NCBI GenBank assembly: GCA_041486085.1
Contig: JBGPKU010000007.1
Span: forward strand, 14,630-78,629
Direction of reading: 5' to 3'
Length of the DNA stretch: 64,000 nucleotides
Source of the DNA: Candidatus Limnocylindria bacterium
Lineage (GTDB): Bacteria; Chloroflexota; Limnocylindria; P2-11E
Notes under the pieces: generated by a model
Databases searched by the model: none
What the model was told of the DNA's origin: nothing
Seen by the model: only the letters and a program-made list of their open reading frames with translations
Position numbers and translations under genes: made by a program
Shown here: positions 1 to 63,233 of the stretch, piece after piece
How positions within the stretch are numbered: position 1 is the first letter of the stretch
Layout of the letters: each line of letters opens with the position of its first letter

Positions 1-1
1 C

Positions 2-1051
2 GCGAGAGAGATCGCCGAGGTGCACAAGCGCCAGGGCGGCGCCGTGAGCTTCGAGGACCTTGCCTCGTATCACGTGACCGTCGAAGCGCCGGTCCATACG
101 ACCTATCGTGGGATCGACGTCTACGCCTGCGGGCCGTGGTCCCAGGGCCCGCTCGTCCCGATGACGCTCAACCTGCTCGAGGCGTACGACATCGCCTCGC
201 TCGGGCCCGGATCGCTGCCGTACCTGCACCGCTACACCGAGGCCTTCAAGCTCGCGGCCGCCGACCGCGAGGGCTTCTTCGGCGACCCGGATCAGGTGGA
301 CGTGCCGATCCGCGGTCTGCTCGACAAGGGCTACGCCGACGAGCGCCGAACGATGATCCGTGACGATCGGGCGTGGCCAGAGCTGCCTGAGCCAGGGAAT
401 CCATGGCGTTATGAGGGACGGTCGGGCCCATTTGGATACCGCCCGCGCGTGGCCGAGGGCGTGGGCGCGCCGGACACCTCGTACTGCTGCGCCATGGACG
501 CCGATGGCAGCGCGTTCTCCGCCACCCCGTCGGATCCGGGTCTGGGCGCCCCGCTCGTCGATGGCCTCGGGATCATCGTGAGCACGCGCGGCGCGCAGCT
601 CTGGACGACGCCGGGCCATCCGTCCGCGATCGCGCCCCGCAAGCGGCCGCGTCTCACGCCGAACCCAGCCCTGCTGATGAAGGACGGCCGCGCGCTCATG
701 CCGTTCGGCTGCCCGGGCGAGGACGCGCAGTGCCAGGCGATGATCCAGACCGTCTGCAACATCGTCGACTTCGGCATGAACACGCAGGCGGCGATCGAAG
801 CGCCGCGCGTCATCTCGCGCTCGTTCCCGTGGACGTTCCACCCGCACGCCTACGAGCCCGGCGTGCTCACGGTCGAAGGGCGGATCGCGCGCGCCGTGCG
901 CGACGGCCTCGCGCGGCTCGGTCACGTGGTGCGCGACCTGCCCGACTTCACGCCGGCCGCGGCGGGAATGTGCGCGATCCGGGAGCTCGAACCCGGAACG
1001 CTCGAGGGCGGCGCCGATCCCCGGCGCGAGTCCTACGTGATCGGATGGTGA
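2..1051 (+). CDS. gamma-glutamyltransferase family protein, C-terminal part (5' end outside window)
   Basis: The frame is open to the window edge, and the track ORF 20..1051 starts at an internal GTG. GGT-family motifs are present: 'APDTSYCCAMDADG' (nucleophile Thr region), 'ATPSDPG' and 'MPFGCPGEDAQCQAMIQ'. Confidence 0.75.
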   Translation, partial: AREIAEVHKRQGGAVSFEDLASYHVTVEAPVHTTYRGIDVYACGPWSQGPLVPMTLNLLEAYDIASLGPGSLPYLHRYTEAFKLAAADREGFFGDPDQVDVPIRGLLDKGYADERRTMIRDDRAWPELPEPGNPWRYEGRSGPFGYRPRVAEGVGAPDTSYCCAMDADGSAFSATPSDPGLGAPLVDGLGIIVSTRGAQLWTTPGHPSAIAPRKRPRLTPNPALLMKDGRALMPFGCPGEDAQCQAMIQTVCNIVDFGMNTQAAIEAPRVISRSFPWTFHPHAYEPGVLTVEGRIARAVRDGLARLGHVVRDLPDFTPAAAGMCAIRELEPGTLEGGADPRRESYVIGW

Positions 1052-1440
1052 GCGAGCGTCGCGTCACGGGGATCGGCGGCGTCTTCTTCAAGGCGCGGGA
1101 TCAGGCGAGCCTTGGAGCGTGGTATCGGCGGCATCTCGGGATCCCGGTCGAGGACGGTGGCTGGGCGGTATTCCCGTGGCAGGAGAGCGGCGACCCGACG
1201 CGGCCCGGCACGACGGTGTGGGCGGTGTTCGAGGACGGCACGGACTACTTCGGATCCGGAGCCCAACGCGCGATGATCAACTACCGCGTCGCGGATCTGG
1301 ACGCGGTGCTCGCGGCGCTTCGCAGTGAGGGCGTGACGGTCGACGAGCGCGTCGAAGCCACGCCGGACGTTCGCTTCGGCTGGATCACCGATCCCGAGGG
1401 AAATCGCATCGAGCTGTGGCAACCGCCGGCGGACCGCTGA
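1045..1440 (+). CDS. VOC (glyoxalase/bleomycin-resistance fold) family protein
   Basis: The ATG at 1045 overlaps the upstream stop (ATGGTGA). The 131-aa product has 'GIGGVFFKARD' and 'GWITDPEGNRIELWQ', typical of the VOC fold. The N-terminal 105 aa of track ORF 730..1440 are out-of-frame readthrough of the GGT gene. Confidence 0.75.
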   Translation: MVSERRVTGIGGVFFKARDQASLGAWYRRHLGIPVEDGGWAVFPWQESGDPTRPGTTVWAVFEDGTDYFGSGAQRAMINYRVADLDAVLAALRSEGVTVDERVEATPDVRFGWITDPEGNRIELWQPPADR

Positions 1441-2603
1441 CCGTGACCGATGAGGAGGGTCGGTGGCGGGACGAGTTCCCGATCACAAAAGACCTCGTCT
1501 ACCTGAACAACTGCTCGCTCACGCCGCTGCCCAAGCGCGGCCGGGAGCGCATCGAGCGGTTCGCGCGCGAATGGACCGAGCTCGGCGGCCGTGCCTGGTA
1601 CGACCACTGGATCGGCGAGTACGAGGCCCTGCGCGCGGACATCGCGCGTGTGCTCGGAGCCGCCGTCGACGAGGTCGCCATCGAGCCGAACGTCTCAGCC
1701 GGACTCGTCGGCGTCGCGAGCACCTTCGACTACACCAACCGGCCGAAGGTCATCGTCTCCGATCTCGACTTCCCGACGGATGGGCACGCCTTCCTCGCCG
1801 TCGCGCAGCGCGGGGCGCAGGTGCAGTTCGTCCGCAGCCCGGATCGCGTCCGGATACCGCTCGAGCTGTTCGAGAGCGCCGTCGACCATCACACCGCCGC
1901 CGTCTGCACCGGTCACGTGTATTTCACGACCGGCTGGATCCAGGACGTGAAGGCGCTGGCCGAGATCTGCCACCGCAAGGGCGCGAAGCTCGTCGTCGAC
2001 GCGTACCAATCCATCGGCGCCTTCCCATTCGACGTTCGCACGAGCGGCGTGGACTACCTGGTCGGCGGGACGCTCAAGTGGCTGATGGGCGGACCCGGCA
2101 TCGCGTTCCTCTACGCGCGGCGCGAGATCGCCGACGCCGCGCACCCATCCGCGGTCGGCTGGTGGGGTGTGGCCGATCCGTTCGCGTTCGACGTCGAGCA
2201 CCTCGAGCCCGGGAAGGGCGCGCGGCGCTTCGAGTACGGCACGCCGGCGGTGGCGGCGATCTACGCGGCGCGGGCCGGCATCGCGCTCCTCGACGAGATC
2301 GGCATCGAGACCGTGCGCGAGCGCCACATGCTGCTGTCGCAGCGCCTCGTCGACGGCGCCCGCGCACAGGGGTGGACGGTGCGCTGTCCGATCGACGCGC
2401 GTGAACGAACGGCCATCGTCACGCTCGAGCATCCCGAGCCGCAGCGCGCGGTGGACGAGCTTCGGGCGCAGGGTCTCATCTGCGACAGCCGTCCGGGGCT
2501 CATTCGCCTCTCACCGCACTACTTCAACACGCAGGACGAGATGTATCGCGCCCTCGAGCTCCTCGCGCCGCAGCGCCGAGCCGCGGTGGCGGCGACCACC
2601 TGA
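1416..2603 (+). CDS. aminotransferase class V-fold PLP-dependent enzyme
   Basis: 395-aa ORF with 'VYLNNCSLTP', 'VVDAYQSIGAFPFDV' and 'GGTLKWLMGGPG' (probable PLP lysine). An alternative GTG start lies at 1443, just after the VOC stop. Confidence 0.8.
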   Translation: MATAGGPLTVTDEEGRWRDEFPITKDLVYLNNCSLTPLPKRGRERIERFAREWTELGGRAWYDHWIGEYEALRADIARVLGAAVDEVAIEPNVSAGLVGVASTFDYTNRPKVIVSDLDFPTDGHAFLAVAQRGAQVQFVRSPDRVRIPLELFESAVDHHTAAVCTGHVYFTTGWIQDVKALAEICHRKGAKLVVDAYQSIGAFPFDVRTSGVDYLVGGTLKWLMGGPGIAFLYARREIADAAHPSAVGWWGVADPFAFDVEHLEPGKGARRFEYGTPAVAAIYAARAGIALLDEIGIETVRERHMLLSQRLVDGARAQGWTVRCPIDARERTAIVTLEHPEPQRAVDELRAQGLICDSRPGLIRLSPHYFNTQDEMYRALELLAPQRRAAVAATT

Positions 2604-2635
2604 CGCATAACGGCCGGCGCCTTCTGGCGTGGGTC

Positions 2636-3271
2636 GTGGTCGTGGGCCTCCTGTCGGCCATCGGCTACTCCGCCCGCTTCCTGGATACGTCGCCGACGCC
2701 GCCCGATGTGCTCTTTCGCTGGTCGACCGCGATCGGCACGTTCGTCATCGACGGCATCCTGCTGCTCTTCATGCTGCTCATCGCCCGCGGCCTTTCGCTT
2801 CGGGACGCGTTCGCCGTCCGGCATCCGGCCTCGTGGTCGCAGGCCCTGCGCATCGGCGGGGCCGTCCTGGTCGCGATCTGGGCCACCTCGCTGGTGCTCG
2901 AGCTCACCGTCGGTCACGCGGTGCGCGAGCAGGCGGTCCCGCAGTACTGGGACGCCACCCGCCTCCCGGCGTTCGTTGTGAACGCTTTCGCCATCGCGCT
3001 CTTCGTGCCGATCGTCGAGGAGTCTCTCTGCCGCGGCCTCGGCTACGCGCTGCTGGAGAAATGGGGGCAGCCTGTCGCGATCGGGGGCACCGCGGTCGCG
3101 TTCGCGCTCGCGCACGGCGCGGTGCTCGACCTGCCGTGGGTCCTCGTCACCGGCCTTGGCCTGGGCTACCTGCGCGCGCGGACCGGAAGCCTCTATCCGT
3201 GCGTCGCGCTTCACGCGACGGTGAACGGGATCGCGGTGCTCGCATCGGCGCTCATCGCGCGCGGAGGCTAG
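2636..3271 (+). CDS. CPBP family intramembrane glutamic endopeptidase (CAAX protease-like)
   Basis: Multiple hydrophobic segments plus the three CPBP motifs 'EESLCRGLG', 'FALAHG' and 'LHATVNG'. Confidence 0.75.
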   Translation: MVVGLLSAIGYSARFLDTSPTPPDVLFRWSTAIGTFVIDGILLLFMLLIARGLSLRDAFAVRHPASWSQALRIGGAVLVAIWATSLVLELTVGHAVREQAVPQYWDATRLPAFVVNAFAIALFVPIVEESLCRGLGYALLEKWGQPVAIGGTAVAFALAHGAVLDLPWVLVTGLGLGYLRARTGSLYPCVALHATVNGIAVLASALIARGG

Positions 3272-3609
3272 GCCTCGCGGAGCGAGCGCACCGCGTCGCG
3301 CAGGTCTCCTTCGAGGTCGGTCGCCGCCCTGCCGCTCGCGAGACTCTCGCCCGCGATCACGAGCGAGCGCAGCTCGGCGTAGGGGAGGAGCGGGTCCGCA
3401 AGGTTGCGGTCGTCGTGATCCAGACCGTCTTCCTCCTTCAGCCGCCGGCGAACTTCGACCCACCGAACGATGGTGTCGCGATCGGCGGCGGGGAGCCGCG
3501 CATAGACCGCCGGGTCGTTCAGCGCCTCTCGATAGGGCAGGAGAGCGCGCCGCTCGGTCCCGCGCGGGTGCTCGCGGGCGAGGGCCAGATCCCGTTCGCC
3601 GATATCCAT
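3268..3609 (-). CDS. hypothetical protein
   Basis: 113-aa ORF with an ATG start and ordinary amino-acid composition, convergent with the CPBP gene (4-nt overlap). I recognise no family. Confidence 0.5.
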   Translation of the reverse strand: MDIGERDLALAREHPRGTERRALLPYREALNDPAVYARLPAADRDTIVRWVEVRRRLKEEDGLDHDDRNLADPLLPYAELRSLVIAGESLASGRAATDLEGDLRDAVRSLREA

Positions 3610-3709
3610 TCGGCCATGCTAGGCAGGGCTAGACTCACTCGGACGCCGACTTTCGGGTTCGGGTTCCACGACCCGCGAAGACGGCGGTTTTTGTGAGGAA
3701 GAGGGACAG

Positions 3710-4810
3710 ATGAGGCAGATCGACAAGGCATACGACCGGCGCACGTTCCTGAAGCTTGCGGGAGCCACCGCGGCAATCGCCGCATGCGGCGGAGCCACCG
3801 TCGCACCATCGCCGACGGTATCGGCCGCGGGCACGACGGCGGCCACCGCGGCCGCGACCGCGGCGCCCGTGACCGGGACGATCTCCGTCTACTCGGCGCT
3901 CAACGAGTCGACGAACAACGAGTTCTTCGGCGCGTTCAAGAAGGCGTTCCCGAACGTCACGGTGAACGTCCTGCCGCTGGCCGCGGCGGGGGAGCTGCAG
4001 ACACGCATCCGCACCGAGAAAGCCAGCCCGAAGGCCGACATCTTCATCGGCGGCTCGAGCGAGTTCCACGATCCGCTGGGCAAGGAAGGCCTCCTCGAGG
4101 CCTACATCGCGCCGAACGCGAAGGACATCGACGCGAAGTTCAAGGAGGCCACCGGCCTGTGGACCGGCTGGTACACCGGCATCTTCGGGTTCATCTCGAA
4201 CAACGACCGGCTTAGCAAGGAGATCGGTGGCAAGAAGCCCGCGACGTGGGATGACCTGCTCGACAAGGCATGGGAGAAAAAGCTCGTCCTCCCCGATCCG
4301 GTGAAGACCGGCGGCGGCTACATCTTCATCGCCACGCAGATCTTCCGCTTCAACAAGGACGAGGCGAAGGCCATGGCCTACATGAAGAGCCTCCACGCGA
4401 ACGTCGCGCAGTACGTGCCAACGTCGCCGGGTGCGCTCACACTCATCGATCAAGGCCAGTTCGTGGGGTGCCCGAACTGGGTGCACGACATCCTGACCGA
4501 GAAGAACAAGGGAAACCCTGTGGACGTCAATGTGCCGACGGACACCGGCTTCGAGGTCGGCGCCGTGAGCATCGTGAAGGGGACGAAGAGCCTCGCCGCG
4601 GCGCAGGCCTTTGTGAACTGGTCCATCACCAAGGAAGCCGGCGAGCTCAACGTCAAGCTGAGCAACCGCGGCTCGGTCCGAGCCGACGTGGCACCGGCGG
4701 CCGGGACCCCGAAGCTCTCCGATGTGAAGCTCGTGAACTACGACCGTCAGTGGGCGACGGACAACAAGGACCGCCTCCTGAAGCTTTGGCAGCAGACGGT
4801 GGGTCTCTAG
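3710..4810 (+). CDS. ABC transporter substrate-binding lipoprotein (family 1, Fe(III)/AfuA-like)
   Basis: Tat-like 'RRTFLKLAG' followed by lipobox 'AAIAAC'. An RBS-like GAGGAAGAGGGA lies upstream, and the cognate permease and ATPase follow. Confidence 0.85.
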   Translation: MRQIDKAYDRRTFLKLAGATAAIAACGGATVAPSPTVSAAGTTAATAAATAAPVTGTISVYSALNESTNNEFFGAFKKAFPNVTVNVLPLAAAGELQTRIRTEKASPKADIFIGGSSEFHDPLGKEGLLEAYIAPNAKDIDAKFKEATGLWTGWYTGIFGFISNNDRLSKEIGGKKPATWDDLLDKAWEKKLVLPDPVKTGGGYIFIATQIFRFNKDEAKAMAYMKSLHANVAQYVPTSPGALTLIDQGQFVGCPNWVHDILTEKNKGNPVDVNVPTDTGFEVGAVSIVKGTKSLAAAQAFVNWSITKEAGELNVKLSNRGSVRADVAPAAGTPKLSDVKLVNYDRQWATDNKDRLLKLWQQTVGL

Positions 4811-4835
4811 CGGGTACCGCGATCTGAACTAGACG

Positions 4836-6455
4836 ATGCGCAGCTTGCAGCGCGAGCCGGGTGTCCTGCTCGCGCTGCTTGCTGTGATCGGTCTGGTGGC
4901 GCTGTTCATCGTCTACCCGCAACTCCGCGTCATCGCGACGCCAGGCACCGGGTACATCGATTTCATCAGCGGCGGCACCTGGGTCCGCTCGACCTGGCAA
5001 TCGATCCAGGTCATGGTCCTCTCGACGACGACCGCGGTGCTGCTCGGCTTCGTGTTCGCGTACGGGATGGTCTACACGAACATGCCCTGGAAGCGGTTCT
5101 TCCGGGTCATCGGCATTCTGCCGCTGCTCTCGCCGCCGTTCGTCGTGGCGGCGGCCTACGTCATCCTGTTCGGCCCGCGCGGACTCATCTCGTACGGAGT
5201 CTTCGGACAGACGCTGAATATCTTCGGGCTCGGTGGCATCTGGGGGGTTCAGACGATCGCGTTCTTCCCGTTCGCGTACCAGCTGATCGCCGACGTTCTG
5301 TCACGCAGCGACGCTCGGCTCGAGCAGGCCGCGCGCAACCTCGGAGCCGGTCCCTGGCAGGTCTTCCGGACCGTGACGCTGCCGCTGTCGCGTCCGGGCC
5401 TCGGCGCGGCGATCCTCACGACGGCGATCTACGTGCTCGAGGACTTCGGCAACCCCGCCCTCATCGGCGGGACGTACACCGTGCTGCCCACTCAGGCGTA
5501 CGGCTTGATCAGCGGCTTCGGCGACCTCCCCGGGGCGACCGCGGTGAGCACGCTCCTCCTCGCCCTCGCGCTCATCCTCTACGTCGCGAAGATTCGCCTC
5601 GACGGCGGCCGTTCTTTCGTCACTGTGAGCGGGCGAGCATCGTCAATGCCGCGGCCGCCGGTGCCCGTGGCGCTGACCTTGACTTGCTTTGTCGCGTGCC
5701 TTCTGCTCTCGGTCGTCATCCTCACGGTTTACGGATCGCTGCTCGTCTCGGCGGTCACGCTGAACTTCCCGATGGTCCTGACGCCGACGATGCAGCACTT
5801 CGAATACATCACCACCGGCACGAATGGCACGGCGCTGCAGAACACGCTCGTCTTCGGCTTGGTGGCCGCTGCCTTCTCGGCCATCTTCGCCCTCGTCGCT
5901 GGGTGGCTCGTGGAGCGTGGCAGCTGGGCTGGCCGGGGCGTGCTTGATTTCCTGCTCATCATGCCGGCCGCGATCCCCGGCCTCTTCTTTGGGATCGGCT
6001 ACGCGACCGCCTTCAACGAGCCCTGGCTGGATTGGCTCGACCGCGGTGTGCTCATCATCATCTCGATGATCTTCTGGAACATCCCGGTCGGATATCAAGC
6101 GGCGGTCGCGGGCCTGCGTCAGATCGATCGCACGATGGACGAGGCCGCGACGAGCCTCGGTGCGTCGAGCCTGCGTGGATTCCGCGACGTGCTCATGCCG
6201 ATGCTCGGAGGGTCGCTCCGAGTCGGGTTCGTGACGACGTTCGTGCGCGCCGTGACCACGCTCTCGGTCGTCATCTTCCTGTTCACGCCGAGCAGCACCG
6301 TTGCCACGATCAGGATCTTCCAGCTGGTGAACGACCTGAACTTCGGTCGCGCGACCGCGTTCACGGTCGCCGACATCAGCATGGCTATGCTCGCGCTCGG
6401 CGCGTTCGCCGTGCTCGCACGAGGACGCGTCGCGCTTGGAGCGGCCCGTGCGTAG
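4836..6455 (+). CDS. ABC transporter permease (two fused MetI-like domains, FbpB/AfuB type)
   Basis: 539 aa and highly hydrophobic, with two EAA-loop copies: 'EQAARNLGAGPWQVFRTVTLP' and 'DEAATSLGASSLRGFRDVLMP'. Confidence 0.85.
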   Translation: MRSLQREPGVLLALLAVIGLVALFIVYPQLRVIATPGTGYIDFISGGTWVRSTWQSIQVMVLSTTTAVLLGFVFAYGMVYTNMPWKRFFRVIGILPLLSPPFVVAAAYVILFGPRGLISYGVFGQTLNIFGLGGIWGVQTIAFFPFAYQLIADVLSRSDARLEQAARNLGAGPWQVFRTVTLPLSRPGLGAAILTTAIYVLEDFGNPALIGGTYTVLPTQAYGLISGFGDLPGATAVSTLLLALALILYVAKIRLDGGRSFVTVSGRASSMPRPPVPVALTLTCFVACLLLSVVILTVYGSLLVSAVTLNFPMVLTPTMQHFEYITTGTNGTALQNTLVFGLVAAAFSAIFALVAGWLVERGSWAGRGVLDFLLIMPAAIPGLFFGIGYATAFNEPWLDWLDRGVLIIISMIFWNIPVGYQAAVAGLRQIDRTMDEAATSLGASSLRGFRDVLMPMLGGSLRVGFVTTFVRAVTTLSVVIFLFTPSSTVATIRIFQLVNDLNFGRATAFTVADISMAMLALGAFAVLARGRVALGAARA

Positions 6456-7557
6456 ACAGCCAGACCGAGCCGCAGGCGGCTGGGGCGAGGTCCACCTCAG
6501 GCTCGACAACGTCACGAAGAAGTTCGGCGAGACGACCGCGGTCGACGACATCTCGTTCGAGATCCCGCGCGGCGCGTTCGCGACACTCCTGGGTCCGTCC
6601 GGCTGCGGCAAGACGACGACGCTGCGCATGATCGCCGGGTTCTACGACCCGGATCGGGGCGACATCGTCCTCGGTGGGCGCCGAATCAACGAGCTGCCCG
6701 CGCACCGTCGCGGCACGGCCATGGTCTTCCAGGACTACGCCCTGTTCCCGCACATGACGGTTCGTGACAACGTGGGCTACGGCCTCCGCGTCGCCGGTGT
6801 GGCGAAGGAAGATCGTGACCGGCGCGTGGACGAGACCCTCGAGTTCGTGGGTCTCGGCAAGCTCGGCGACCGCTGGCCAAATCAACTATCAGGAGGGCAA
6901 CAACAACGAGTGGCCGTCGGGCGGGCGCTCGTCCTTCGCCCAGAGGTGCTTCTTCTGGACGAGCCGCTGTCGAACCTCGACGCCAAGCTTCGCGTGCAGC
7001 TGCGCTGGGAGCTGCGCAGCCTTCAGCAGCAGCTCGGGATGACCTTCGTCTACGTGACCCACGATCAGGACGAGGCGCTCTCGCTCTCGGACTGGATCGC
7101 CGTGATGAACGCGGGCAAGGTCGAGCAGCACGGCACGCCGCTCGAGATCTACTACCGCCCGCGCACGTCGTTCCTCGCCGACTTCGTCGGCGCGGTGAAC
7201 CTCGTGCCCGGGACCGTGCGCGAAGTGCGCGGGGACGAGGTGGTGGTCGCGTTCGGCGAGCGCGCCGTCACGGTGCGCAGGCCGAGCGGCCTCGACCTGG
7301 CCGCCGGGCGCGCCGTCCGCCTCTGCGTCCGTCCCGAGGCGCTCACGCTCCGTCCGCCCTCCGCGGACACCGACGGTGTCCGCCTGCCGGGCGTCGTCGC
7401 GCGCCGTGCGTTCCTGGGGGACCTCATGCGGTACTGGGTGACCGTGGATGGTCGCGAGTGGATCGTCGATCAACCCGATCCGGGTGCCGCCGCCGACTTC
7501 GACGGTCCGGTGACCGTTGCGGTGAAGCCCGAGCGCATCCATGTCATTGCGGAGTAA
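6436..7557 (+). CDS. ABC transporter ATP-binding protein (FbpC/PotA-like)
   Basis: Walker A 'GPSGCGKTT', signature 'LSGGQQQRVAVGRAL', Walker B 'LLLDEP', and a C-terminal TOBE-like region. The start is TTG 6436 or GTG 6448, overlapping the permease end. Confidence 0.9.
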   Translation: MERPVRRQPDRAAGGWGEVHLRLDNVTKKFGETTAVDDISFEIPRGAFATLLGPSGCGKTTTLRMIAGFYDPDRGDIVLGGRRINELPAHRRGTAMVFQDYALFPHMTVRDNVGYGLRVAGVAKEDRDRRVDETLEFVGLGKLGDRWPNQLSGGQQQRVAVGRALVLRPEVLLLDEPLSNLDAKLRVQLRWELRSLQQQLGMTFVYVTHDQDEALSLSDWIAVMNAGKVEQHGTPLEIYYRPRTSFLADFVGAVNLVPGTVREVRGDEVVVAFGERAVTVRRPSGLDLAAGRAVRLCVRPEALTLRPPSADTDGVRLPGVVARRAFLGDLMRYWVTVDGREWIVDQPDPGAAADFDGPVTVAVKPERIHVIAE

Positions 7558-7581
7558 AGGGCTCGCGAATGGGCTGATGTG

Positions 7582-7610
7582 CGGAGGGGGCGCGCTGCGC
7601 GCCCCCTCCG
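7582..7610. terminator. bidirectional stem-loop between convergent genes
   Basis: Perfect 13-bp GC-rich stem CGGAGGGGGCGCG / CGCGCCCCCTCCG with a 3-nt loop, lying between the ABC ATPase stop (7557) and the peroxidase stop (7623). There is no clear U-tract. Confidence 0.5.
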
Positions 7611-7622
7611 TCACGTTGGTCG

Positions 7623-9539
7623 CTAGTCGCCCGCGAACTTGAAGACGTTCGCCGGCAGGGTGACGCCGGTGTTCAGCTTGACGATCTCCGCGAGCGTGTG
7701 CCGGTAGTCGATGCCGAATTGCAGGTCGATGACTCGGAGGACGGGATCGTTCCGGTAGAAGAACCGGTCACCGTCACGTAGGGCCTCGAACTGCTTCTTC
7801 CACATCGCGAGCTGGAGCTCGCCGAACTCGGTTCCGGGCACGTGACGCTCCGCAACCATGCCCACGAACGCGTCGAGGTTGTCGACGCTCCTGTAGACGG
7901 CCTTGAGGCGTGCCGCCAGGGTCGTCCGCCGTACACCGACGATCGCGCCCTCACTCGCTTCGGGAGTGCCGAAGGGGATGACGCTTCCGTGGCCGTCGCG
8001 AAGCTCGAGGAAGTCGAGGATGTTCGGGTCGTTGATCGGGTCGTTCGCATCGATCACGCGTTCGGCCGGGAACCGCTGCGTGGCCTCGCCGGTGATGTCC
8101 GTGAATGAAGTCTTTGGGGCGAGCCCATACGCCCGCCGCAGGTCGTTGTAATCCGGCATGCCGTGGTCTCGGCCGCGTGCGATGTCGATCGCGCCGAGAT
8201 CCGTCACACCCTTGAAGCACTCGGGGTGATCCACCGGTTCTCCGCAGACGGTCGGGTCGGGTATCCCCGGCTTCGGGACCTGGAACAGGACGCTGCGAAG
8301 AGCGTTGTCCATCTGCTCGTCGTTCTTGTACTGACGCTCTCCCAGGCTCCCCAGCACGGTGCCGAGGCCGACCTGCCGCAACAGATCGGGGGCGCCGAAC
8401 GCCGCGTTCAACGGGATCGTGAGCAGGACTTCGTCGGCCGTGGTGGTCACCGCGATGCCGCGGGCGGCGAATGAGGCGAGCTGGCCGGCGGTGTACCTGC
8501 CGAGCGGCGCGGCGGCGTCGAATTCTCCATGGATCATGCTGTGCGCGCGGTAGCCGACGACCGCGAACTCGTTCGAGAGTCCCGGGTTCACCTTCGGGTC
8601 GTAGCCGTCGTACGGGCTGAGACGCAGCCCGACCGCGGGCAGGAACTGCGTGTAGGTGATGTACTCCAGCTCGGCGCCGACGACGCGCCGAGCGATCTGA
8701 AAGCGCTCTTCCGCCGAGAGTCGATCGGGAAGCGCGGCGACGATGCGGTTGTGCTCCCGAGCGAAGAGCGTGTGCAACGCCGTAAGGGCGATGTTCTCGT
8801 TCGCGCGGACATCGCCGGCGACGACGGCCTTGTCGGGCGCGCCTTGCAGCGGGCCCATCAGGTCCATCGCCGGAGCCGAGGCGGCGTCGCCACGCGCGGT
8901 GACGCGCGGCAGGTAGCCGTCGGCCGTGAGCATGAGACGGGCGCCGTTGTTGCCGAGGTCGTTGTCGACCGGGCCGACGCGCAGCCACTCGAGCCGAGCC
9001 GAGCTCACGCCGTAGACGCCCGACGCGTCGATGAAGCTGCTGAGCGTGTTGACGTGCTGGCGCGGCGACGACACTCCTGTGCCCGGAGCCGCTGGCGTGC
9101 GGGCAAAGGACATGACGCCGAGGTCGTTGGTGAAGGTCTCGAGCGGATCGCTCGCGCTGAACGTGAGCGGCGCGCTCTCCAGTGCCCTCTCGTCGCGTAG
9201 ACCGAAGTCGTGGTCCATGAACTGTCCCCAGACCCAGGCCCACTGGGTCAAGGCGTTCTCTGAGAACAGGTTCTGGCCCGTGTCGTTGAAGACGCGGTTG
9301 CTCACGTAGCGCACGGACGGGCCGGGCACCACCGCGCCGACGCGATCGGCGTAGTTCGGCGAAGCAACACGCAGGTAGAGCGTGTTCGCACGGCCCCACT
9401 CAGGATGCAGCGGATTGTTGCCGTGGCCATCCAGTGTTCGAATGAAGAACGAGTTGGCCGAGGCTGGGGTCGACGTGACGGACAGCACGACGATCGTGAA
9501 CAGGAGCGCGAGCGCGGTGCAGAGTCTTGAACGGGACAT
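7623..9539 (-). CDS. secreted haem peroxidase, peroxidase-cyclooxygenase ('animal haem peroxidase') superfamily
   Basis: The ATG at 9539 is preceded by GGGAGGGTG. Signal peptide 'ALALLFTIVVLSVTSTPASA'; motifs 'WGQFMDHDFG', 'GDVRANENIALTALHTLFAREHNRI' and 'GYRAHSMIHGEF'. Confidence 0.8.
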   Translation of the reverse strand: MSRSRLCTALALLFTIVVLSVTSTPASANSFFIRTLDGHGNNPLHPEWGRANTLYLRVASPNYADRVGAVVPGPSVRYVSNRVFNDTGQNLFSENALTQWAWVWGQFMDHDFGLRDERALESAPLTFSASDPLETFTNDLGVMSFARTPAAPGTGVSSPRQHVNTLSSFIDASGVYGVSSARLEWLRVGPVDNDLGNNGARLMLTADGYLPRVTARGDAASAPAMDLMGPLQGAPDKAVVAGDVRANENIALTALHTLFAREHNRIVAALPDRLSAEERFQIARRVVGAELEYITYTQFLPAVGLRLSPYDGYDPKVNPGLSNEFAVVGYRAHSMIHGEFDAAAPLGRYTAGQLASFAARGIAVTTTADEVLLTIPLNAAFGAPDLLRQVGLGTVLGSLGERQYKNDEQMDNALRSVLFQVPKPGIPDPTVCGEPVDHPECFKGVTDLGAIDIARGRDHGMPDYNDLRRAYGLAPKTSFTDITGEATQRFPAERVIDANDPINDPNILDFLELRDGHGSVIPFGTPEASEGAIVGVRRTTLAARLKAVYRSVDNLDAFVGMVAERHVPGTEFGELQLAMWKKQFEALRDGDRFFYRNDPVLRVIDLQFGIDYRHTLAEIVKLNTGVTLPANVFKFAGD

Positions 9540-56881: not shown

Positions 56882-58969
56882 ATGACCGCAGCAGATCTGG
56901 TGCCTCCGGCCCCGGAGTCGCCGCGCGAGGACGTCGTCGACACGTGGCATGGTGAGCGGATCAGCGATCCCTACCGTTGGCTCGAAGGTGACTCGGAACG
57001 GATCAGGTCGTGGACCGACGCCCAGAACGTGCGCACGCGCTCCGTCCTCGACGCCATCCCCGCCCGCGAAGCCCTCGCCACGCGTCTGCGGGAGCTGCTG
57101 TCGGTCGGCCTCCTCACGACTCCCAAACCAGCGGGCAAATGGATCTTCCACACCCGGCGGGAGGGTGATCAGAAGCAGGCCGTGCTCTACGTGCGCGAGG
57201 GTCTGACCGGAACGGACCACGCGCTCATCGATCCGAATGCCCTCGATGCCGGAGGCCTGGTGACGCTCGACTGGTATTACCCCTCGAGCGACGGCGCCTT
57301 CGTCGCCTACGGCCTGTCCCATGGTGGTGACGAGCTGTCCACGCTGCACGTCGTGGATGTGGTGTCGGGGACCGACTGCGGTGAGGCGATCCCGCACACC
57401 CAGCGCTCCAGCGTCGCCTGGACGGCCGACGGGTTCTATTACACGGTCCATCCCGCGCCGGGCAGCGTCGCGGCCGGTGACGAGCACTACCACCGTCGCA
57501 TCCGCTACCACCGCTTGGGCGACGATCCCGCGAACGACGAGCTCGCCTTCGGTGAGGGCCGGCTGAAGGAGGACATCCTCGTCGTGCAGACCTCACCGGA
57601 TGGGCGCTGGGTCATGGCCGAGGCGTTCCGCGGGTGGGTCCAGAGCGATGTCTACCTGCTCGATCGGCGCGACGCCGCGAAGACCTGGCGCACCGTCGTG
57701 GCCGGCGAGGACGGTCTCACCTCGGGACTTCTCACGAATGACGGCGTCTGGCTGCGCACGAACCTCGACGCGCTCAACTACGTCGTGGCTCGCGCCACGT
57801 TCGATTCGCCAGGGCGCGAGTCGTGGAAGGTTGTTGTGCCGGAGAGCGAGCATCCCATCGAGCTGTTCGACGTGTCACGCGACCGCGTCGCCGTCGTGCG
57901 CCTGTCGAACGCGACGTCGCGTGTGTCGCTCTGGACGCACGACGGCAAGCATGAGCGCGAGGTGACGCTGCCGGGCCTCGGGACCGTGTCGGGGATCAGC
58001 GCCGACCCGACCGGCGACCTCATCACGCTCACGTATGAATCGTTCGCCGCGCCCGCGGCCGCGTTCGGGATCACGCGCGACGGCTCGCTGCACGAGATCG
58101 TGCGTCTCGCCACACCGCGCGGTCTCGATCCCGCATCGCTCGTGGTGGAGCAGACCACGTATTCATCGCGTGATGGCACACCGATCACGATGTTCCTGGT
58201 CCATCGCGGCGACATTCATGCGAGCGGTGACGTGCCCACCGTGCTGTCGGGGTATGGCGGCTTCAACATCTCGCGCACGCCGGCGTATTTTCCGGGCGTC
58301 GCCGCGTGGGTCGAGGCCGGCGGGCTTTTCGCGCTTCCCAACCTGCGGGGCGGCGGCGAGTACGGCGAGCGCTGGCACCGCGATGGGATGCTCCAGCGCA
58401 AGCAGAACGTCTTCGACGACTTCCACTCCGCCGCCGAAGCGCTGGTCTCCCAGGGATGGACGACCGCGGAGCGTCTGGGCATCTCGGGCGGATCGAACGG
58501 CGGCCTCCTGACCGGCGCCGCCCTGACGCAGCGACCTGAGCTGTTCGCCGCGGTGTTCTGCGCGGTACCGCTGCTCGACATGCTGCGCTATCAGAACTTC
58601 CTGATCGCGCGCTTCTGGATCGCCGAGTACGGCACCGCCGAGGATGCGGCGCAGTATCGCTGGCTGCGCGCGTACTCGCCCTACCACCACGTCCGCCCCG
58701 GCCTGCGCTACCCCGCGATGCTTTTCACGACGGCCGAGGGCGACAGTCGCGTCGATCCGATGCATGCGCGAAAGATGGCTGCGCTGATGCAGGCGGTCAC
58801 CGCCCCGGACCCCCGTGCCCTCGTGCTCCTCCGGGTCGAGCGTGATGCCGGACACGGCATCGGAAAGCCACTGGATAAGCAGGTCGACGACCTCGCCGAC
58901 CAGTATTCGTTCTTCGCCTGGCGGCTTGGTCTGGCGCAGGGGGCCTCCGGTATGCTCGGTAAGAGATGA
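56882..58969 (+). CDS. prolyl oligopeptidase family serine peptidase (S9A)
   Basis: 695 aa with 'DPYRWLE', a beta-propeller region, 'GYGGFNIS', nucleophile 'GGSNGGLL' and 'RVERDAGHG'. Confidence 0.9.
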   Translation: MTAADLVPPAPESPREDVVDTWHGERISDPYRWLEGDSERIRSWTDAQNVRTRSVLDAIPAREALATRLRELLSVGLLTTPKPAGKWIFHTRREGDQKQAVLYVREGLTGTDHALIDPNALDAGGLVTLDWYYPSSDGAFVAYGLSHGGDELSTLHVVDVVSGTDCGEAIPHTQRSSVAWTADGFYYTVHPAPGSVAAGDEHYHRRIRYHRLGDDPANDELAFGEGRLKEDILVVQTSPDGRWVMAEAFRGWVQSDVYLLDRRDAAKTWRTVVAGEDGLTSGLLTNDGVWLRTNLDALNYVVARATFDSPGRESWKVVVPESEHPIELFDVSRDRVAVVRLSNATSRVSLWTHDGKHEREVTLPGLGTVSGISADPTGDLITLTYESFAAPAAAFGITRDGSLHEIVRLATPRGLDPASLVVEQTTYSSRDGTPITMFLVHRGDIHASGDVPTVLSGYGGFNISRTPAYFPGVAAWVEAGGLFALPNLRGGGEYGERWHRDGMLQRKQNVFDDFHSAAEALVSQGWTTAERLGISGGSNGGLLTGAALTQRPELFAAVFCAVPLLDMLRYQNFLIARFWIAEYGTAEDAAQYRWLRAYSPYHHVRPGLRYPAMLFTTAEGDSRVDPMHARKMAALMQAVTAPDPRALVLLRVERDAGHGIGKPLDKQVDDLADQYSFFAWRLGLAQGASGMLGKR

Positions 58970-59343
58970 ACATTCTCGAGATCCTGCGCGAGAAGGCCAG
59001 GGACTACGACTGCGGCGTCTGTGGCACCAACCACAGCCGTTCGGAGATCAGCCTCCTCGGCCGCCGCGAGGGCGGATGGGTCGTCAAGGTGGTCTGCTCG
59101 AAATGTGAGACGAACATCACGCTCCTCGTGTACGTCGGAGACAAGTCCAAGGCCGACCAGGCTGAGGTGAGCGGCGCGATCCGCCGCCGATCCGTGGCCG
59201 GCCCGCCGAGGCCTGAGCGGCGGCCGCCCCTCTCGCTCGACGACGTGATCGACGCGCACGACCTGCTCGAGTCGTTCTCTGGCGACGTGAATGCGCTGTT
59301 CGCGCCGCGCGGGAAGGTCCGCACCTCCACCGACATCTCCTAG
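58966..59343 (+). CDS. zinc-ribbon hypothetical protein
   Basis: ATGA overlap with the peptidase stop. 'CGVCGTNH...CSKCETN' (CxxC...CxxC). 125 aa. Confidence 0.55.
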   Translation: MNILEILREKARDYDCGVCGTNHSRSEISLLGRREGGWVVKVVCSKCETNITLLVYVGDKSKADQAEVSGAIRRRSVAGPPRPERRPPLSLDDVIDAHDLLESFSGDVNALFAPRGKVRTSTDIS

Positions 59344-60417
59344 ATGGCGAAAAACGCGGTGATCACCGGTTGGGGTTTCCACGCGCCATCCCGCGTCGTC
59401 ACCAACTTCGATCTCGAGAAGATGGTCGACACGACCGACGAGTGGATCACGAGCCGCACAGGCATCAAGGAGCGACGCTTCGCGGCGGAGGGCGAGACGA
59501 CGTCGTCGATGTCGGTGCGCGCCGCTCGGATCGCGCTCGAGCGGGCGAGGATGCGGCCGCAAGACGTGCAGCTCGTCATCGTGGGCACGTGCTCCCCGGA
59601 CTACCTGTTCCCGGCGACCGCCTGTCTGGTCCAGGCAGAGCTCGGGGCGACGCGCGCTGGCGCATTCGACATCGAAGCCGCGTGCACCAGCTTCGTCACC
59701 GCGCTCGGCGTCGCAAAGGGCATGATCACCTCGGGCACCGTCCAGAACGCCCTGGTCATCGGCGCGGAGACGCTGTCCCGATTCCTCAACTGGAAGGACC
59801 GCACGACCTGCGTGCTCTTCGGCGACGGCGCCGGTGCCGTCGTGGTCGAGGCCTCCAACGCATCGGTCGGGATCGAGTCCGTCGTCCTGCACAGCGAGGG
59901 CTCGAAGGGCGAGCTCCTCATGGTGCAAGCCGGTGGGGCGAAGCTGCCTGCCACCAAGGACACACTCGAGCGCGGTCAGCACTTCATCACGATGCAGGGC
60001 GGTGAGGTGTTCAAGCTCGCGGTGAAGTCGATGGCCGATGCGGCCGAGGAGGCGATCCGCGAGGCCAGCCTCGGCCTCGATGACATCGCGATCATGATCC
60101 CGCACCAGGCGAACATCAGGATCATCGAAGGTGTCGCAAAACGACTGCACTTCCCGATGGAAAAGGTCTTCGTGAACATCCAGCGCTACGGCAACACCTC
60201 GTCCGCGTCGATCCCGATCGCGATCGCGGAGGCGGCGGCCTCCGGTCGCCTGCGTCGCGGGGACAAGGTATTGCTCGTCGCGTTCGGCGGCGGATTCACG
60301 TGGGGCGCGTCGGTGCTCGAGTGGTTCGGACCGCACGACGGCGTTCGGCCGCCGTCTCCGTTGGAGCGGGCGCGCGAAGCGCTCGAAGACGTCGTGGAGC
60401 GCGTTCGCCCGATCTGA
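59344..60417 (+). CDS. fabH: beta-ketoacyl-ACP synthase III
   Basis: 'AACTSFVTAL' (active Cys), 'PHQANIRI' and 'GNTSSASIP'. The ATG directly follows the upstream stop. Confidence 0.9.
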   Translation: MAKNAVITGWGFHAPSRVVTNFDLEKMVDTTDEWITSRTGIKERRFAAEGETTSSMSVRAARIALERARMRPQDVQLVIVGTCSPDYLFPATACLVQAELGATRAGAFDIEAACTSFVTALGVAKGMITSGTVQNALVIGAETLSRFLNWKDRTTCVLFGDGAGAVVVEASNASVGIESVVLHSEGSKGELLMVQAGGAKLPATKDTLERGQHFITMQGGEVFKLAVKSMADAAEEAIREASLGLDDIAIMIPHQANIRIIEGVAKRLHFPMEKVFVNIQRYGNTSSASIPIAIAEAAASGRLRRGDKVLLVAFGGGFTWGASVLEWFGPHDGVRPPSPLERAREALEDVVERVRPI

Positions 60418-60611
60418 GCCGCGCGCACCTGACGCCAATGTGAACGAACCTGAATTCCGCAAGCCCGCTCGCCACGCGAGCGAGCGTCGGGCCGGCGTTC
60501 TCAACTGCTTTTCGACCGCGAGTGCACGCACCGGTCTCTCGCCCGGCACGAGCGAGCCACACCATTCAACCAGCACTTATTCGTACGCGGTCCTGGTCGG
60601 TGGAGGTTTGG

Positions 60612-61214
60612 ATGGGCGTGCAGGCAGTCACTCATCGGATCATTTCGTTCACGGCAGCGTTCGCGCTGGCCGGCGCGCTGGTCCTCGGCGCCTTCGCGTC
60701 GCCGGCGTCGGCCGCCGATTGCCCGGATCCGGTCGTTGAGTTCCTCGGCATCGGCGCCGGGAACATCACCCTGGCCGCCGCGGACGCGAATCACTGGGTC
60801 GGAACGGTCACGATCCGCGTGTTCTGCGAGCTCGGCGGCGGCGCATCCGTGCCCGTCACGAACGCTCAGGTCCGCATCACGACGAACGTCCCGAACACGA
60901 CCTTCGACGGACACCCGGCATTCCTGCTGACGACCGCGGTCATCGAGCTCCCGACGGGGACCAAGACGGTCGAGGTCGTATCGAGTGATCCTGGCCTCGC
61001 GCCGGGTCAGGTGTTCGGACGCGTCGGAGGACAGCTGAGCATCGCGACGGTCGCATTCGGGAGCCACGTCCCGCTCGGGTACGCGCCCATAGTCGTTACC
61101 AATGTCTTCGCACGGACTCCTGAGCTCAGCAGCATTGCGCTCCTGGCCTCGGGTGGTGTCGGCGCCGCGGGATACCTGGTCATCGCGGCGCGCGCGAGGC
61201 GGCGCCGGAGCTAA
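60612..61214 (+). CDS. secreted protein with PEP-CTERM-like (PEL) C-terminal sorting signal
   Basis: ATG 60612 lies 5 nt after GGAGG. Signal peptide '...LGAFASPASA'. C-terminus 'TPEL-SSIALLASGGVGAAGYLVIAA-RARRRRS' (motif, TM helix, basic tail). Confidence 0.65.
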   Translation: MGVQAVTHRIISFTAAFALAGALVLGAFASPASAADCPDPVVEFLGIGAGNITLAAADANHWVGTVTIRVFCELGGGASVPVTNAQVRITTNVPNTTFDGHPAFLLTTAVIELPTGTKTVEVVSSDPGLAPGQVFGRVGGQLSIATVAFGSHVPLGYAPIVVTNVFARTPELSSIALLASGGVGAAGYLVIAARARRRRS

Positions 61215-61236
61215 CCCGGCGCATCGGGAGACGGCG

Positions 61237-62097
61237 ATGAGCTCGGCTTCCGCACGGATATCCCGCATACCGATGCGGGACGTCCCGGCGGCGACCCTGC
61301 TCCTCGCCGTCACCGGCGTTCTTCTCGCGCCGGCGCTCGAGCACGCCGTCGAGCTCTGGTCCACGACCGAGGAGTTCAGCTACGGATTCCTCATCGTGCC
61401 GATCGCCGCGGGATTGGTGTTCATTCGCCGCCATCGCATCAGCGCCCTCGCCGGCGCCGGCGATGACCGCGGCCTCATCCTCTCGGCGGCCGGACTCCTC
61501 CTGTATCTCCTCGGGGAACGCATGAACGTGCACGCGCTGTCGGGCCTCGCGATCACGCCGATCCTCCTCGGGGGCGCTCTGTATCTCTGGGGTCGCGCGG
61601 TCGCCGTCGCGCTCGCCTTTCCACTGTGCTTTCTGGCGTTCGGCTTCGCGCCCTATCGCGGACTGCTGGACACGCTCGGCTTCGCGCTGCAGGTCGTCAC
61701 CGCCGACGGCGCCGCGCTCGTCGCGACTATCGTCGGCCTCCCGGTCGTGGTCGAAGGGCTCGTGCTGACGCTGCCGTCGTATTCGTTCGTCGTGGCGGAA
61801 GCGTGCTCCGGCATGAGCTCGCTCCTGTCGATGCTGGCCCTCGCGTCGGTGTTCATCCATCTGGCGCAGGCGTCGCTCCCGCGCAAGCTCGCCGTGATCG
61901 CGGCGGTGCTCCCGATCGTGGTGATCGCCAACGTCCTGCGCGTGACGCTCGTGCTGGCCGTCGCGGAGTCATTCGGCCCCGAGACCGCGACGGGCTTCTT
62001 CCACGGCGCGTCGAGCCTTGCCCTCTTCGCCTTCGCACTGGCCGGTCTGTTTGGATTCAGCCGGGTGGTCGGATGCCGGATCCCCGTCGCGTCCTGA
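61237..62097 (+). CDS. exosortase/archaeosortase family protein
   Basis: ATG 61237 lies 6 nt after GGGAG. 286 aa and polytopic, with 'WSTTEEFSYGFLIVP', 'VVAEACSGMSSL' (catalytic Cys region) and 'IANVLRVTLV' (Arg). Confidence 0.75.
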   Translation: MSSASARISRIPMRDVPAATLLLAVTGVLLAPALEHAVELWSTTEEFSYGFLIVPIAAGLVFIRRHRISALAGAGDDRGLILSAAGLLLYLLGERMNVHALSGLAITPILLGGALYLWGRAVAVALAFPLCFLAFGFAPYRGLLDTLGFALQVVTADGAALVATIVGLPVVVEGLVLTLPSYSFVVAEACSGMSSLLSMLALASVFIHLAQASLPRKLAVIAAVLPIVVIANVLRVTLVLAVAESFGPETATGFFHGASSLALFAFALAGLFGFSRVVGCRIPVAS

Positions 62098-62684
62098 TCC
62101 TCGCGGCGCTCGTCGCGAGCGGCGCCGGCGGCATGTTCGCGCTGCCCGCCCCGGACGTCTCGGCCGACGTGCGCCGCCCCCCGAGCGCGGTCTTCGCGGC
62201 GGCCGGCTGGTCGGTGGGCGAGCCGCTCCTCTCGACGGCCAACAGCATCGGCATGGCCACGCTCCGATACGCGTCCACCAGCGGCGATGCGGGTGCCGTG
62301 ATCGCGGTCGCGACGAGCCCCGACGCCAAGCGCATCTACCGCGCCGGACCGGAGATCCCGTTCGCCGGCTCCGGGTACCAGGTCACGAGCGCGCCGCGAG
62401 AGCTCGTCGCATCGACCGCGGATCGAGTCGCGCTCATCGCTGCACGCGGTCAGGAGCGCCTGCTGCTCATCGCGACCTACGGCGAGCGCCGGGGACGGCT
62501 CGGCAACGGGCCCCTCGCATGGGCCGCCGCCGCGCTGGATGGCGTCCTCGCGAACGCCAACGACTACTACCTCGTCACGGTCGTGGTCGCGCTCTCTGGC
62601 TCGGACGATCAGAGGACCGCGGCGAAGGCCGAGCAGCTCGCGGGCTCGGTGTTCGCCGAGGTCGCGCGGTGGTACGCGCGCTAG
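62073..62684 (+). CDS. EpsI-like exosortase-associated protein
   Basis: ATG 62073 overlaps the exosortase end by 25 nt. N-terminal TM segment; 'AGPEIPFAGSGYQVTS' and 'LLLIATYGERRGRL...DYYLVTVV' resemble the EpsI pattern. Confidence 0.55.
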   Translation: MPDPRRVLILAALVASGAGGMFALPAPDVSADVRRPPSAVFAAAGWSVGEPLLSTANSIGMATLRYASTSGDAGAVIAVATSPDAKRIYRAGPEIPFAGSGYQVTSAPRELVASTADRVALIAARGQERLLLIATYGERRGRLGNGPLAWAAAALDGVLANANDYYLVTVVVALSGSDDQRTAAKAEQLAGSVFAEVARWYAR

Positions 62685-62712
62685 AAGAGGCCCCCGATCC
62701 CCGATTGACCCC

Positions 62713-62740
62713 TTGACAGCGCACCCCAGTGGGGCAGAAT
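62713..62740 (+). promoter_or_regulatory. putative sigma-70-type promoter of the mraZ/dcw operon
   Basis: TTGACA (62713-18), a 16-nt spacer, then CAGAAT (62735-40), about 60 nt upstream of the mraZ start. Confidence 0.4.
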
Positions 62741-62778
62741 CCCGCTGCGTGGTGAATTGTGGGGAACGGTGGGGAATC
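62729..62778 (+). promoter_or_regulatory. putative MraZ operator: GTGG(G/T)G boxes in 10-bp register
   Basis: GTGGGG at 62729, GTGGTG at 62749, and GTGGGG at 62759 and 62769. The last three form GTGGTGAATT GTGGGGAACG GTGGGGAATC. Confidence 0.55.
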
Positions 62779-62801
62779 GTTCTCCAAGTCGGGAAGGTCA
62801 A

Positions 62802-63233
62802 TTGGAAGGCTATTTCGCGGGCGAATTCGCCCATTCTCTGGACGAGAAAGGGCGCCTCGCCATCCCTGCCAAGCTTCGCAGCCGATTCAAGGAAGGCGCG
62901 GTCGTGACACGTTGGATCGGCGAATGCCTGGCCGTCTTCCCCGCACCCGAATGGAGCGCGCTGAACGCCGACATCGCCAAGCGCCCGCGTACCGATCCGG
63001 CGGCGACGCGCTTCCGGCACTTCCTGCTCGCCGGGGCGCACGAGGCTGATCCTGATGCCCAAGGACGGCTCACGATCCCGGCGCACCTCCGCGAGTACGC
63101 GCACCTCTCGAGCGAAGCCGTCGTCATCGGCAACTCCGACCACCTCGAGGTCTGGGAGCCGGGACGCTGGCGCGCCGAGCTCGCGCGCGTCCAGAACGAC
63201 ATCGCCGGCGACCTCAAGGACCTCGGGGTCTAG
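62802..63233 (+). CDS. mraZ: transcriptional regulator MraZ
   Basis: TTG 62802 lies 4 nt after GGGAAGG and gives a 143-aa protein. Two SpoVT-AbrB halves: 'LDEKGRLAIPAKLR' and 'DAQGRLTIPAHLR'. Confidence 0.85.
   Translation: MEGYFAGEFAHSLDEKGRLAIPAKLRSRFKEGAVVTRWIGECLAVFPAPEWSALNADIAKRPRTDPAATRFRHFLLAGAHEADPDAQGRLTIPAHLREYAHLSSEAVVIGNSDHLEVWEPGRWRAELARVQNDIAGDLKDLGV

Follow-up and report, generated by a model that had tools for sequence, protein, structure and literature searches.

A three-gene cassette probably encoding exosortase-type protein sorting, with a TPEL variant of the PEP-CTERM tag

We describe three consecutive genes, all intact open reading frames (ORFs) on the plus strand, in a 64,000-nucleotide stretch of contig JBGPKU010000007.1 (hereafter the window). 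They encode a secreted target protein (gene 1, 60612-61214), an exosortase (gene 2, 61237-62097) and a partner protein in the position of EpsI (gene 3, 62073-62684); the coordinates and strand given by an initial annotation made from the sequence alone agree to the base with our translations. The cassette is probably a three-gene operon for exosortase-type C-terminal protein sorting, from an exosortase clade that has not yet been named, and in the close sub-clade around the window it probably is a dedicated one-enzyme, one-target system. Direct support comes from the family membership of gene 2, the conservation of the C-terminal tag of gene 1, the gene order and the homology of the tag to PEP-CTERM. 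Three things are new, namely an exosortase clade not covered by any named model of NCBIfam 20.0, a TPEL form of PEP-CTERM that is strongly conserved but escapes current models, and a conserved target-enzyme-partner triad that occurs both within extracellular polysaccharide (EPS) loci and free-standing. The kind of system is already known, and no new principle is involved.

The initial annotation had called gene 2 an exosortase, and profile searches bear this out. Its 286-amino-acid product passes PF09721 (175 bits, E=2.4e-51, cut-off 25.7), TIGR02602 '8TM_EpsH' (143.1 bits, cut-off 105.55) and the exosortase/archaeosortase signature TIGR04178 (63.9 vs 23 bits). Hydropathy shows a polytopic protein with several hydrophobic segments, and the 8TM model aligns with it co-linearly from end to end. 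The segments EEFSYGFLIVP, AEACSGMSSL and NVLRV are all present in the translation. A Cys/Arg/His catalytic triad has been proposed for the exosortase protease family (bioRxiv 10.1101/2023.06.07.544157); the putative catalytic residues of gene 2 are Cys190 (61804-61806), Arg235 (61939-61941) and His256 (62002-62004), which, together with Asn232, are invariant in an alignment of 23 clade members.

Membership in named subfamilies was judged by the curated cut-offs of the exception and equivalog models in NCBIfam 20.0. The best named model for gene 2 is XrtA (TIGR03109), with 166.9 bits, below the cut-off of 208, and ten clade relatives that are 48-61% identical to gene 2 reached 137-163 bits against XrtA and passed only the generic model. 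All other named models (XrtB, C, D, G, N, O, S, T, V, W, X and Z) scored far below their cut-offs, for example XrtW at 143 against 425, XrtV at 124.5 against 313, XrtD at 105 against 400, XrtB at 99.6 against 275 and XrtG at 13.8 against 102.75. The cut-offs of CrtA-C, ArtC, ArtE and heimdallarchaeosortase were likewise not reached by gene 2, the archaeosortase models giving E>=5e-7. The suggestion of an undescribed subclass is supported in so far as gene 2 and its ten relatives reach no named Xrt or Art model in this release. The clade enzyme forms hundreds of clusters at 90% identity. Among the best 120 relatives listed, all are at least 49% identical to gene 2 and nearly all are metagenomic; the three with an organism label (about 53-55% identical) are labelled as Chloroflexota or Chloroflexi metagenome-assembled genomes (MAGs), and it is on these labels that our assignment of the host to the Chloroflexota is based. 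A scan of a genome collection with gene 2 returned only one close locus in addition to distant archaeal and planctomycete exosortases, and a sequence search of the PDB returned no solved exosortase structure.

Gene 1 encodes a protein of 200 amino acids composed of a signal peptide, an immunoglobulin (Ig)-like domain and a sorting tag. A ribosome-binding site, GGAGG (60602-60606), precedes the ATG by 5 nt, and the hydrophobic signal peptide spans residues 1-34, ending at ASA/AD. The C-terminus is tripartite: TPEL (nt 61116-61127) abuts the transmembrane helix SSIALLASGGVGAAGYLVIAA with no spacer between motif and helix, and the basic cluster RARRRRS follows, so that translation and hydropathy reproduce the secreted, tripartite protein that the initial annotation had read here. 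This is the architecture of a PEP-CTERM protein, with a signal peptide, a motif abutting a transmembrane helix, a terminal basic cluster and an exosortase alongside. An AlphaFold model places an Ig-like beta-sandwich at about residues 37-150 (predicted local distance difference test score, pLDDT, about 86-94 for a core at about residues 40-150), then a low-confidence linker at residues 157-181 and then the C-terminal helix. Cys37 and Cys72 are invariant in an alignment of 17 gene 1 homologues. Since the model resembles only generic Ig, MSP and filamin-like sandwiches among PDB folds (TM-score <=0.55), we assign no function to the mature domain; no Pfam or NCBIfam family matched gene 1.

The tag is the most conserved part of this protein. 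The 17 close homologues are only 51-74% identical overall, while FARTPELSS..LL.SGG...Y..R..RR is invariant in their alignment, and the tag is therefore not a product of chance. The wider family, collected by searching 1.84 billion cluster representatives with a profile (E<=0.001), comprises 74 representatives at 50% clustering, mostly of 190-250 amino acids and matched over their full length. Among 83 relatives that bear a tail, 79 carry TPEL, and TPEM, TPEP, LPEL and VPEA occur once each; the consensus is A-Q/R/A-TPEL-D/S/G-S-L/I-ALFG-S/T-GAxGxAGYAxxRxRARRR. The reading PEL in place of PEP, to which the initial annotation had drawn attention, is thus a conserved property of the tag and no one-off. 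The PEP-CTERM models TIGR02595 and PF07589 matched neither gene 1, nor its isolated tail (E<=10), nor any of nine TPEL relatives, whereas the family member with TPEP (P0166) passes both (19.6 vs 16 and 23.7 vs 20.7, respectively). Because the TPEP member passes these models and the TPEL members fail them, the tag is homologous to PEP-CTERM yet hidden by the change from Pro to Leu. Against NCBIfam as a whole (E<=10), the isolated tail gave only noise, with 11.7 bits for the XrtJ target model and 11.5 bits for PVV-CTERM. On comparative grounds we regard the TPEL tag as a variant of PEP-CTERM, with the second Pro replaced by Leu, that is specific to this exosortase clade.

The clade was compared over 12 distinct loci (the window, equivalent to L012-15; L007/8; L009/10; L016/17; L020; L019; L022; L011; L021; L001; L018; and the P0087 contig). 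Exactly one TPEL-tailed gene lies directly 5' of the exosortase in nine of them and none has more than one; the search covered the 64 kb of the window plus related loci totalling about 206 kb, and every TPEL tail in them was in this position. All five loci of the close sub-clade (window, L007, L009, L016 and L020) have the target directly next to the exosortase. Seven of the nine adjacent targets are, like gene 1, members of the Ig-like Cys-pair family, that of L019 being recognized with hhalign (98.8% probability, E=1e-16). The other two are an unrelated 119-amino-acid PEKP-rich protein in L011 and a 246-amino-acid Big_2-like protein with a long Thr/Ala/Pro-rich linker in L021 (9235-9975), both with the same TPEL tail. 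Because these unrelated proteins carry the same tail, the tag tracks the enzyme clade and not one protein family, and the sequences indicate that it is portable between unrelated domains.

Within the close sub-clade, the stand-alone triad and an element upstream of it are kept in five independent contexts, with exosortases that are 54-61% identical. Each close relative has different flanking genes but retains the triad and the upstream element, and the three genes appear to travel as one module. The order substrate, exosortase, partner is conserved across differing genomic contexts, by which a dedicated system in Haft's sense is recognized, and this agrees with the sortase-substrate pair that the initial annotation had envisaged. 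The same three-gene logic was also observed in a Methanosarcinales archaeon MAG (JAODGR010000008.1, locus L002, 1500-5268). There, a 638-amino-acid papain-like secreted protein with the C-terminal end IPEESSLLLLSTGLMMLCLFLVVIEWKRG is followed by an enzyme of exosortase rather than archaeosortase type (35% identity with gene 2), and a true DUF3485 protein (34.3 bits) comes third. Provided that the contig was binned correctly, an archaeon here carries an exosortase cassette of bacterial type.

Gene 3 encodes 203 amino acids, with a single transmembrane segment at residues 6-26 by hydropathy that forms an N-terminal anchor for an extracytoplasmic alpha/beta domain of about 175 residues. It overlaps the end of gene 2 by 25 nt (62073-62097), as the initial annotation had reported, and this overlap suggests that its translation is coupled to that of the exosortase. 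A single-pass homologue of 190-245 amino acids lies directly 3' of the exosortase in all 12 loci, usually with an overlap of 4-34 nt. These homologues were taken from the loci, and nine of the twelve were aligned; a word-indexed search with gene 3 gave five matches only. The initial annotation's term 'EpsI-like' for gene 3 stands as far as position is concerned, since the gene follows the exosortase immediately in 12 of 12 loci as EpsI does, but similarity to EpsI is marginal. Gene 3 scores 18.2 bits against PF11984 (DUF3485), with a gathering score of 26.1, over residues 66-193 that are co-linear with model positions 64-196. A DUF3485 match at E<=0.1 was obtained for four of the 12 family members (best E=1.6e-5), nine members scanned gave no match to TIGR02914 or to any other NCBIfam model, and comparison of the partner family with the true DUF3485 protein of L002 by hhalign was negative (probability 0.2%). 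Homology of gene 3 to EpsI is no more than possible. An AlphaFold model (pLDDT 77) shows the alpha/beta domain on its transmembrane anchor and had no convincing match among PDB folds (best TiME, TM-score 0.33), and a PDB sequence search returned no solved relative of gene 3.

The element upstream of the triad has the form TCTCAAC-N6-TTCGACC-N5-TGCAC in the window, where it lies on the plus strand at 60499-60527, 85-113 nt 5' of the gene 1 start, and comprises three TCxAC-like pentamers about 12 bp apart. When the upstream regions of the five close loci are compared, nothing else can be aligned. In about 270 kb searched on both strands, each locus has a single match to TYTCRAC-N6-8-TCSACC-N4-7-TSSAC, in this position, and there are no others; the matches in the relatives are at L007 5335, L009 5264, L016 1631 and L020 9284. 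The block is a candidate for either an extracytoplasmic function (ECF)-type promoter, with 'AAC' as the -35 element and a 17-nt spacer, or a triple direct repeat bound by a response regulator. In L007, an ECF sigma factor gene and a zf-HC2/RskA anti-sigma factor gene lie immediately 3' of the cassette (7546-8852), and this pair could be related to the element.

In five of the 12 clade loci, a conserved Wzy-type EPS locus surrounds the exosortase, in the order WecG, Bac_transf, [target], exosortase, partner, YknX-like, DnaJ-domain, GT1, AAA_31, 48-amino-acid protein, Wzy_C. No adjacent target is present in two of these five, nor in L018. In the close sub-clade, by contrast, the triad stands alone with other neighbours each time, although glycosyltransferase or sugar-modification genes occur within a few kb in three of the other four loci of that sub-clade. 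The annotation of the identical contig L012 shows no polysaccharide gene in the 10 kb upstream of the window cassette, and inspection by eye found nothing polysaccharide-like in the rest of the 64-kb window. The initial annotation's statement that no polysaccharide genes are adjacent is thus true of the window but not of the clade, and because five clade loci sit in a conserved EPS locus, the link to EPS has been lost only locally. Among distant clade members, the EPS locus was seen in L019 (2704-20864), L022 (1668-19246) and the P0087 contig; its YknX-like gene is a periplasmic-adaptor homologue, and its 48-residue ORF (MNLMLAA...), between the AAA_31 kinase-like gene and Wzy_C, is hydrophobic.

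We propose that the N-terminal signal peptide would direct the product of gene 1 to Sec for export. The Ig-like domain would fold outside the membrane, probably with a Cys37-Cys72 disulfide, while the C-terminal helix would tether the protein and keep the Arg cluster in the cytoplasm. The exosortase, using Cys190, Arg235 and His256, would recognize the helix-abutting TPEL(S/D/G)S and cut through a thioacyl intermediate. The cleaved protein may be released or, more likely, transferred to an envelope acceptor, which could be a lipid, as with the archaeosortase ArtA, or a glycan or EPS component. Gene 3 may assist recognition or acceptor handling, as is thought for EpsI-type partners. In known systems, PEP-CTERM proteins associated with flocculation are apparently anchored at the cell surface (bioRxiv 10.1101/2023.06.07.544157; PMC12188702), and ArtA is required for helix removal from PGF-CTERM proteins and for their lipid attachment (PMC7157517; bioRxiv 10.1101/2023.06.07.544157). 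Chloroflexota are increasingly regarded as having no outer membrane (bioRxiv 10.1101/2025.08.19.671072; PMC13319060). If the host belongs to this phylum, anchoring of the ArtA or sortase kind would for that reason be more plausible than transit to an outer membrane. A separate observation concerns L020, in which a Tad-pilus locus (CpaF-like ATPase, CpaE-like, RcpC and two TadE; 1-5747) adjoins the cassette with no recognizable secretin among the called genes; such a locus would fit a host without an outer membrane.

Several points weigh against a dedicated sorting operon as the reading of this cassette. Cleavage and the acceptor are drawn by analogy from other systems, and the role of the partner, whose similarity to EpsI is marginal (18.2 vs 26.1 bits), and a single target per genome are likewise inferred. 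The tag count covers the 64-kb window of this genome, which holds one tagged ORF. Pairing in cis is not universal, since L001, L018 and the P0087 contig lack a substrate gene beside the exosortase, and for the same reason some genomes must encode unlinked TPEL proteins. The initial annotation's claim of one cognate substrate accordingly stands for the window, with its single tag, but does not extend to these three clade members.

A rival view is that the window holds only the core and one target of an ordinary multi-substrate, EPS-linked system of the XrtA type, with other TPEL or PEP targets scattered and the EPS locus elsewhere. It would explain why XrtA is the top named model for gene 2 (166.9 bits), why five of 12 clade loci lie in a Wzy-type locus (WecG, Bac_transf, GT1, AAA_31, Wzy_C) and why the tag occurs on at least three unrelated protein types; the three loci without an adjacent target imply that targets can be unlinked. 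However, all 11 clade members scored miss the XrtA cut-off by about 40-70 bits, the PEP-CTERM models are blind to the tag, a second TPEL tail is absent from every locus over up to 64 kb, and the whole-library profile search gave few tail-only matches outside the Ig-like family. Multi-target systems moreover typically have their targets apart from the enzyme, as in the rhombosortase case (PMC3237569), and we consider this view rather improbable. The association of relatives with EPS loci also recalls the original proposal for EpsH, cited in PMC1569441, under which the EpsH-like protein would be a polysaccharide polymerase or flippase and gene 1 an uncleaved, tail-anchored membrane protein. This is very hard to reconcile with an invariant Cys/Arg/His triad, with a helix-adjacent motif that is extremely conserved in an otherwise divergent gene 1, and with a triad that is intact in the window, where no glycan genes lie nearby. 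The EPS-type and neighbouring loci have separate Wzy- and Wzx-type genes (Wzy_C; Polysacc_synt), and ArtA is needed experimentally for helix removal and lipid attachment (bioRxiv 10.1101/2023.06.07.544157; PMC7157517). We give even less credence to a decaying, non-functional remnant of a larger EPS and exosortase locus, a notion that arises because the cassette stands by itself with housekeeping neighbours, fabH on one side and the dcw cluster on the other. The three ORFs are intact, the third-position GC content (GC3) of genes 1 and 2 (0.80-0.86) is like that of their neighbours, a ribosome-binding site is present and the catalytic residues and tag are invariant; recurrence of the stand-alone triad with its cis-element in five independent contexts argues strongly against decay.

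Exosortases form many subfamilies, each with its own signal flavour, and dedicated enzyme-target pairs from adjacent genes are an established concept, described examples being a Gram-negative sortase with an adjacent LPXTG target and the JDVT-CTERM system (PMC3237569; bioRxiv 10.1101/2023.06.07.544157). NCBIfam also includes exosortase-specific target models, such as 'targ_of_XrtJ' (PExPT-CTERM). Like such pairs, the present cassette has consecutive enzyme and target genes that are probably co-transcribed, its own motif flavour and the patchy distribution of a mobile-looking module. It differs in that neither the XrtJ target model nor any named dedicated subfamily gives more than a negligible score, and in that its clade includes members in EPS loci without an adjacent target and so is not uniformly dedicated. 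With the XrtA/PEP-CTERM/EpsI system (PMC1569441; TIGR03109, TIGR02595, TIGR02914) it shares a polytopic EpsH-type exosortase with a Cys/Arg/His triad, targets that combine a signal peptide with a three-part tag of motif, helix and Arg cluster, a partner gene directly 3' of the enzyme gene, as epsI is of epsH, and many clade relatives in EPS loci. Unlike that system, all 11 clade members scored remain at 137-167 bits vs 208, the clade tag TPEL(S/D/G)S is invisible to TIGR02595 and PF07589, the partner falls below the EpsI models, and there is one adjacent target here vs a median of eight dispersed ones for XrtA. PEP-CTERM has furthermore been defined as limited to bacteria with an outer membrane, whereas the host here is probably a member of the Chloroflexota, which are more and more regarded as lacking one.

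The ArtA/PGF-CTERM system of Haloferax (PMC7157517) resembles the cassette in its homologous enzyme family, in a cell without an outer membrane and in a tag that abuts the helix, and by analogy it is the likely model for the step after cleavage, namely covalent lipid anchoring. It is nevertheless distant (archaeosortase models far below their cut-offs) and has another motif, and the host here is bacterial. The sortase/LPXTG system of Gram-positive bacteria is analogous in its tripartite C-terminal signal and in the transpeptidase logic of Cys/Arg/His; it serves surface display in single-membrane cells, and dedicated sortase-target cassettes exist. Its enzyme fold is unrelated, however, and LPXTG has a spacer before the helix and uses lipid II/peptidoglycan as acceptor. 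A search of one literature library returned nothing on PEL-CTERM or TPEL, and nothing that joins an exosortase with a monoderm.

A broader reading, which we offer tentatively and regard as possible rather than probable, is that the cassette represents a lineage-wide, unmodelled surface-anchoring system of the Chloroflexota. The Ig-like protein would be attached covalently to a membrane lipid or to an envelope or EPS glycan. The system would correspond in bacteria to ArtA/PGF-CTERM and be analogous in function to sortase/LPXTG. The Ig-like protein might then act as the core adaptor that ties a Wzy-dependent polymer or sheath to the cell, and the window would hold the minimal, mobile form under its own conserved promoter element. 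For annotation, the consequences are more immediate. Clade members are annotated only as 'exosortase/archaeosortase family protein' and 'hypothetical protein', because the change from PEP to PEL defeats the PEP-CTERM models. Naming the clade, together with models for TPEL-CTERM and the partner, would make visible to annotation a surface-protein system that recurs in soil Chloroflexota-like MAGs. A compact operon of one enzyme, one target and one partner is also a clean test bed for asking whether exosortases are transpeptidases and which acceptor they use, especially where, as is probable here, the host lacks an outer membrane.

The cassette lies between fabH and the mraZ-rsmH cluster, as initially annotated. 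FabH (59344-60417; ACP_syn_III match in identical contigs) is encoded upstream, and MraZ (62757-63233) and RsmH (from about 63230, by translation) downstream. GC content is even across the region and thus gives no sign of recent acquisition, and the GC3 of genes 1 and 2 is close to that of neighbouring genes. A sigma-70-like promoter, TTGACA-16-CAGAAT, with 10 of 12 matches, lies on the plus strand at 62713-62740, 29 nt past the gene 3 stop and directly 5' of mraZ. It is the sole promoter-like site in the 2.6 kb from 60300 to 62900 (0.0 expected from shuffled sequences) and presumably drives mraZ and the dcw cluster; it bounds the cassette on the 3' side without belonging to it. Terminator-like sites within gene 2 have weak 5-bp stems (three vs 0.9 expected) and were disregarded, and an Rfam scan of the cassette gave nothing meaningful. 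Further upstream, a 125-amino-acid ORF (58966-59343) with two CxxC pairs (CGVCGTNH...CSKCETN) is zinc-ribbon-like and has no Pfam match on record. It overlaps the stop of an S9 peptidase gene by 4 nt, ends 1 nt before the fabH start and is kept in the identical contigs L012 and L013.

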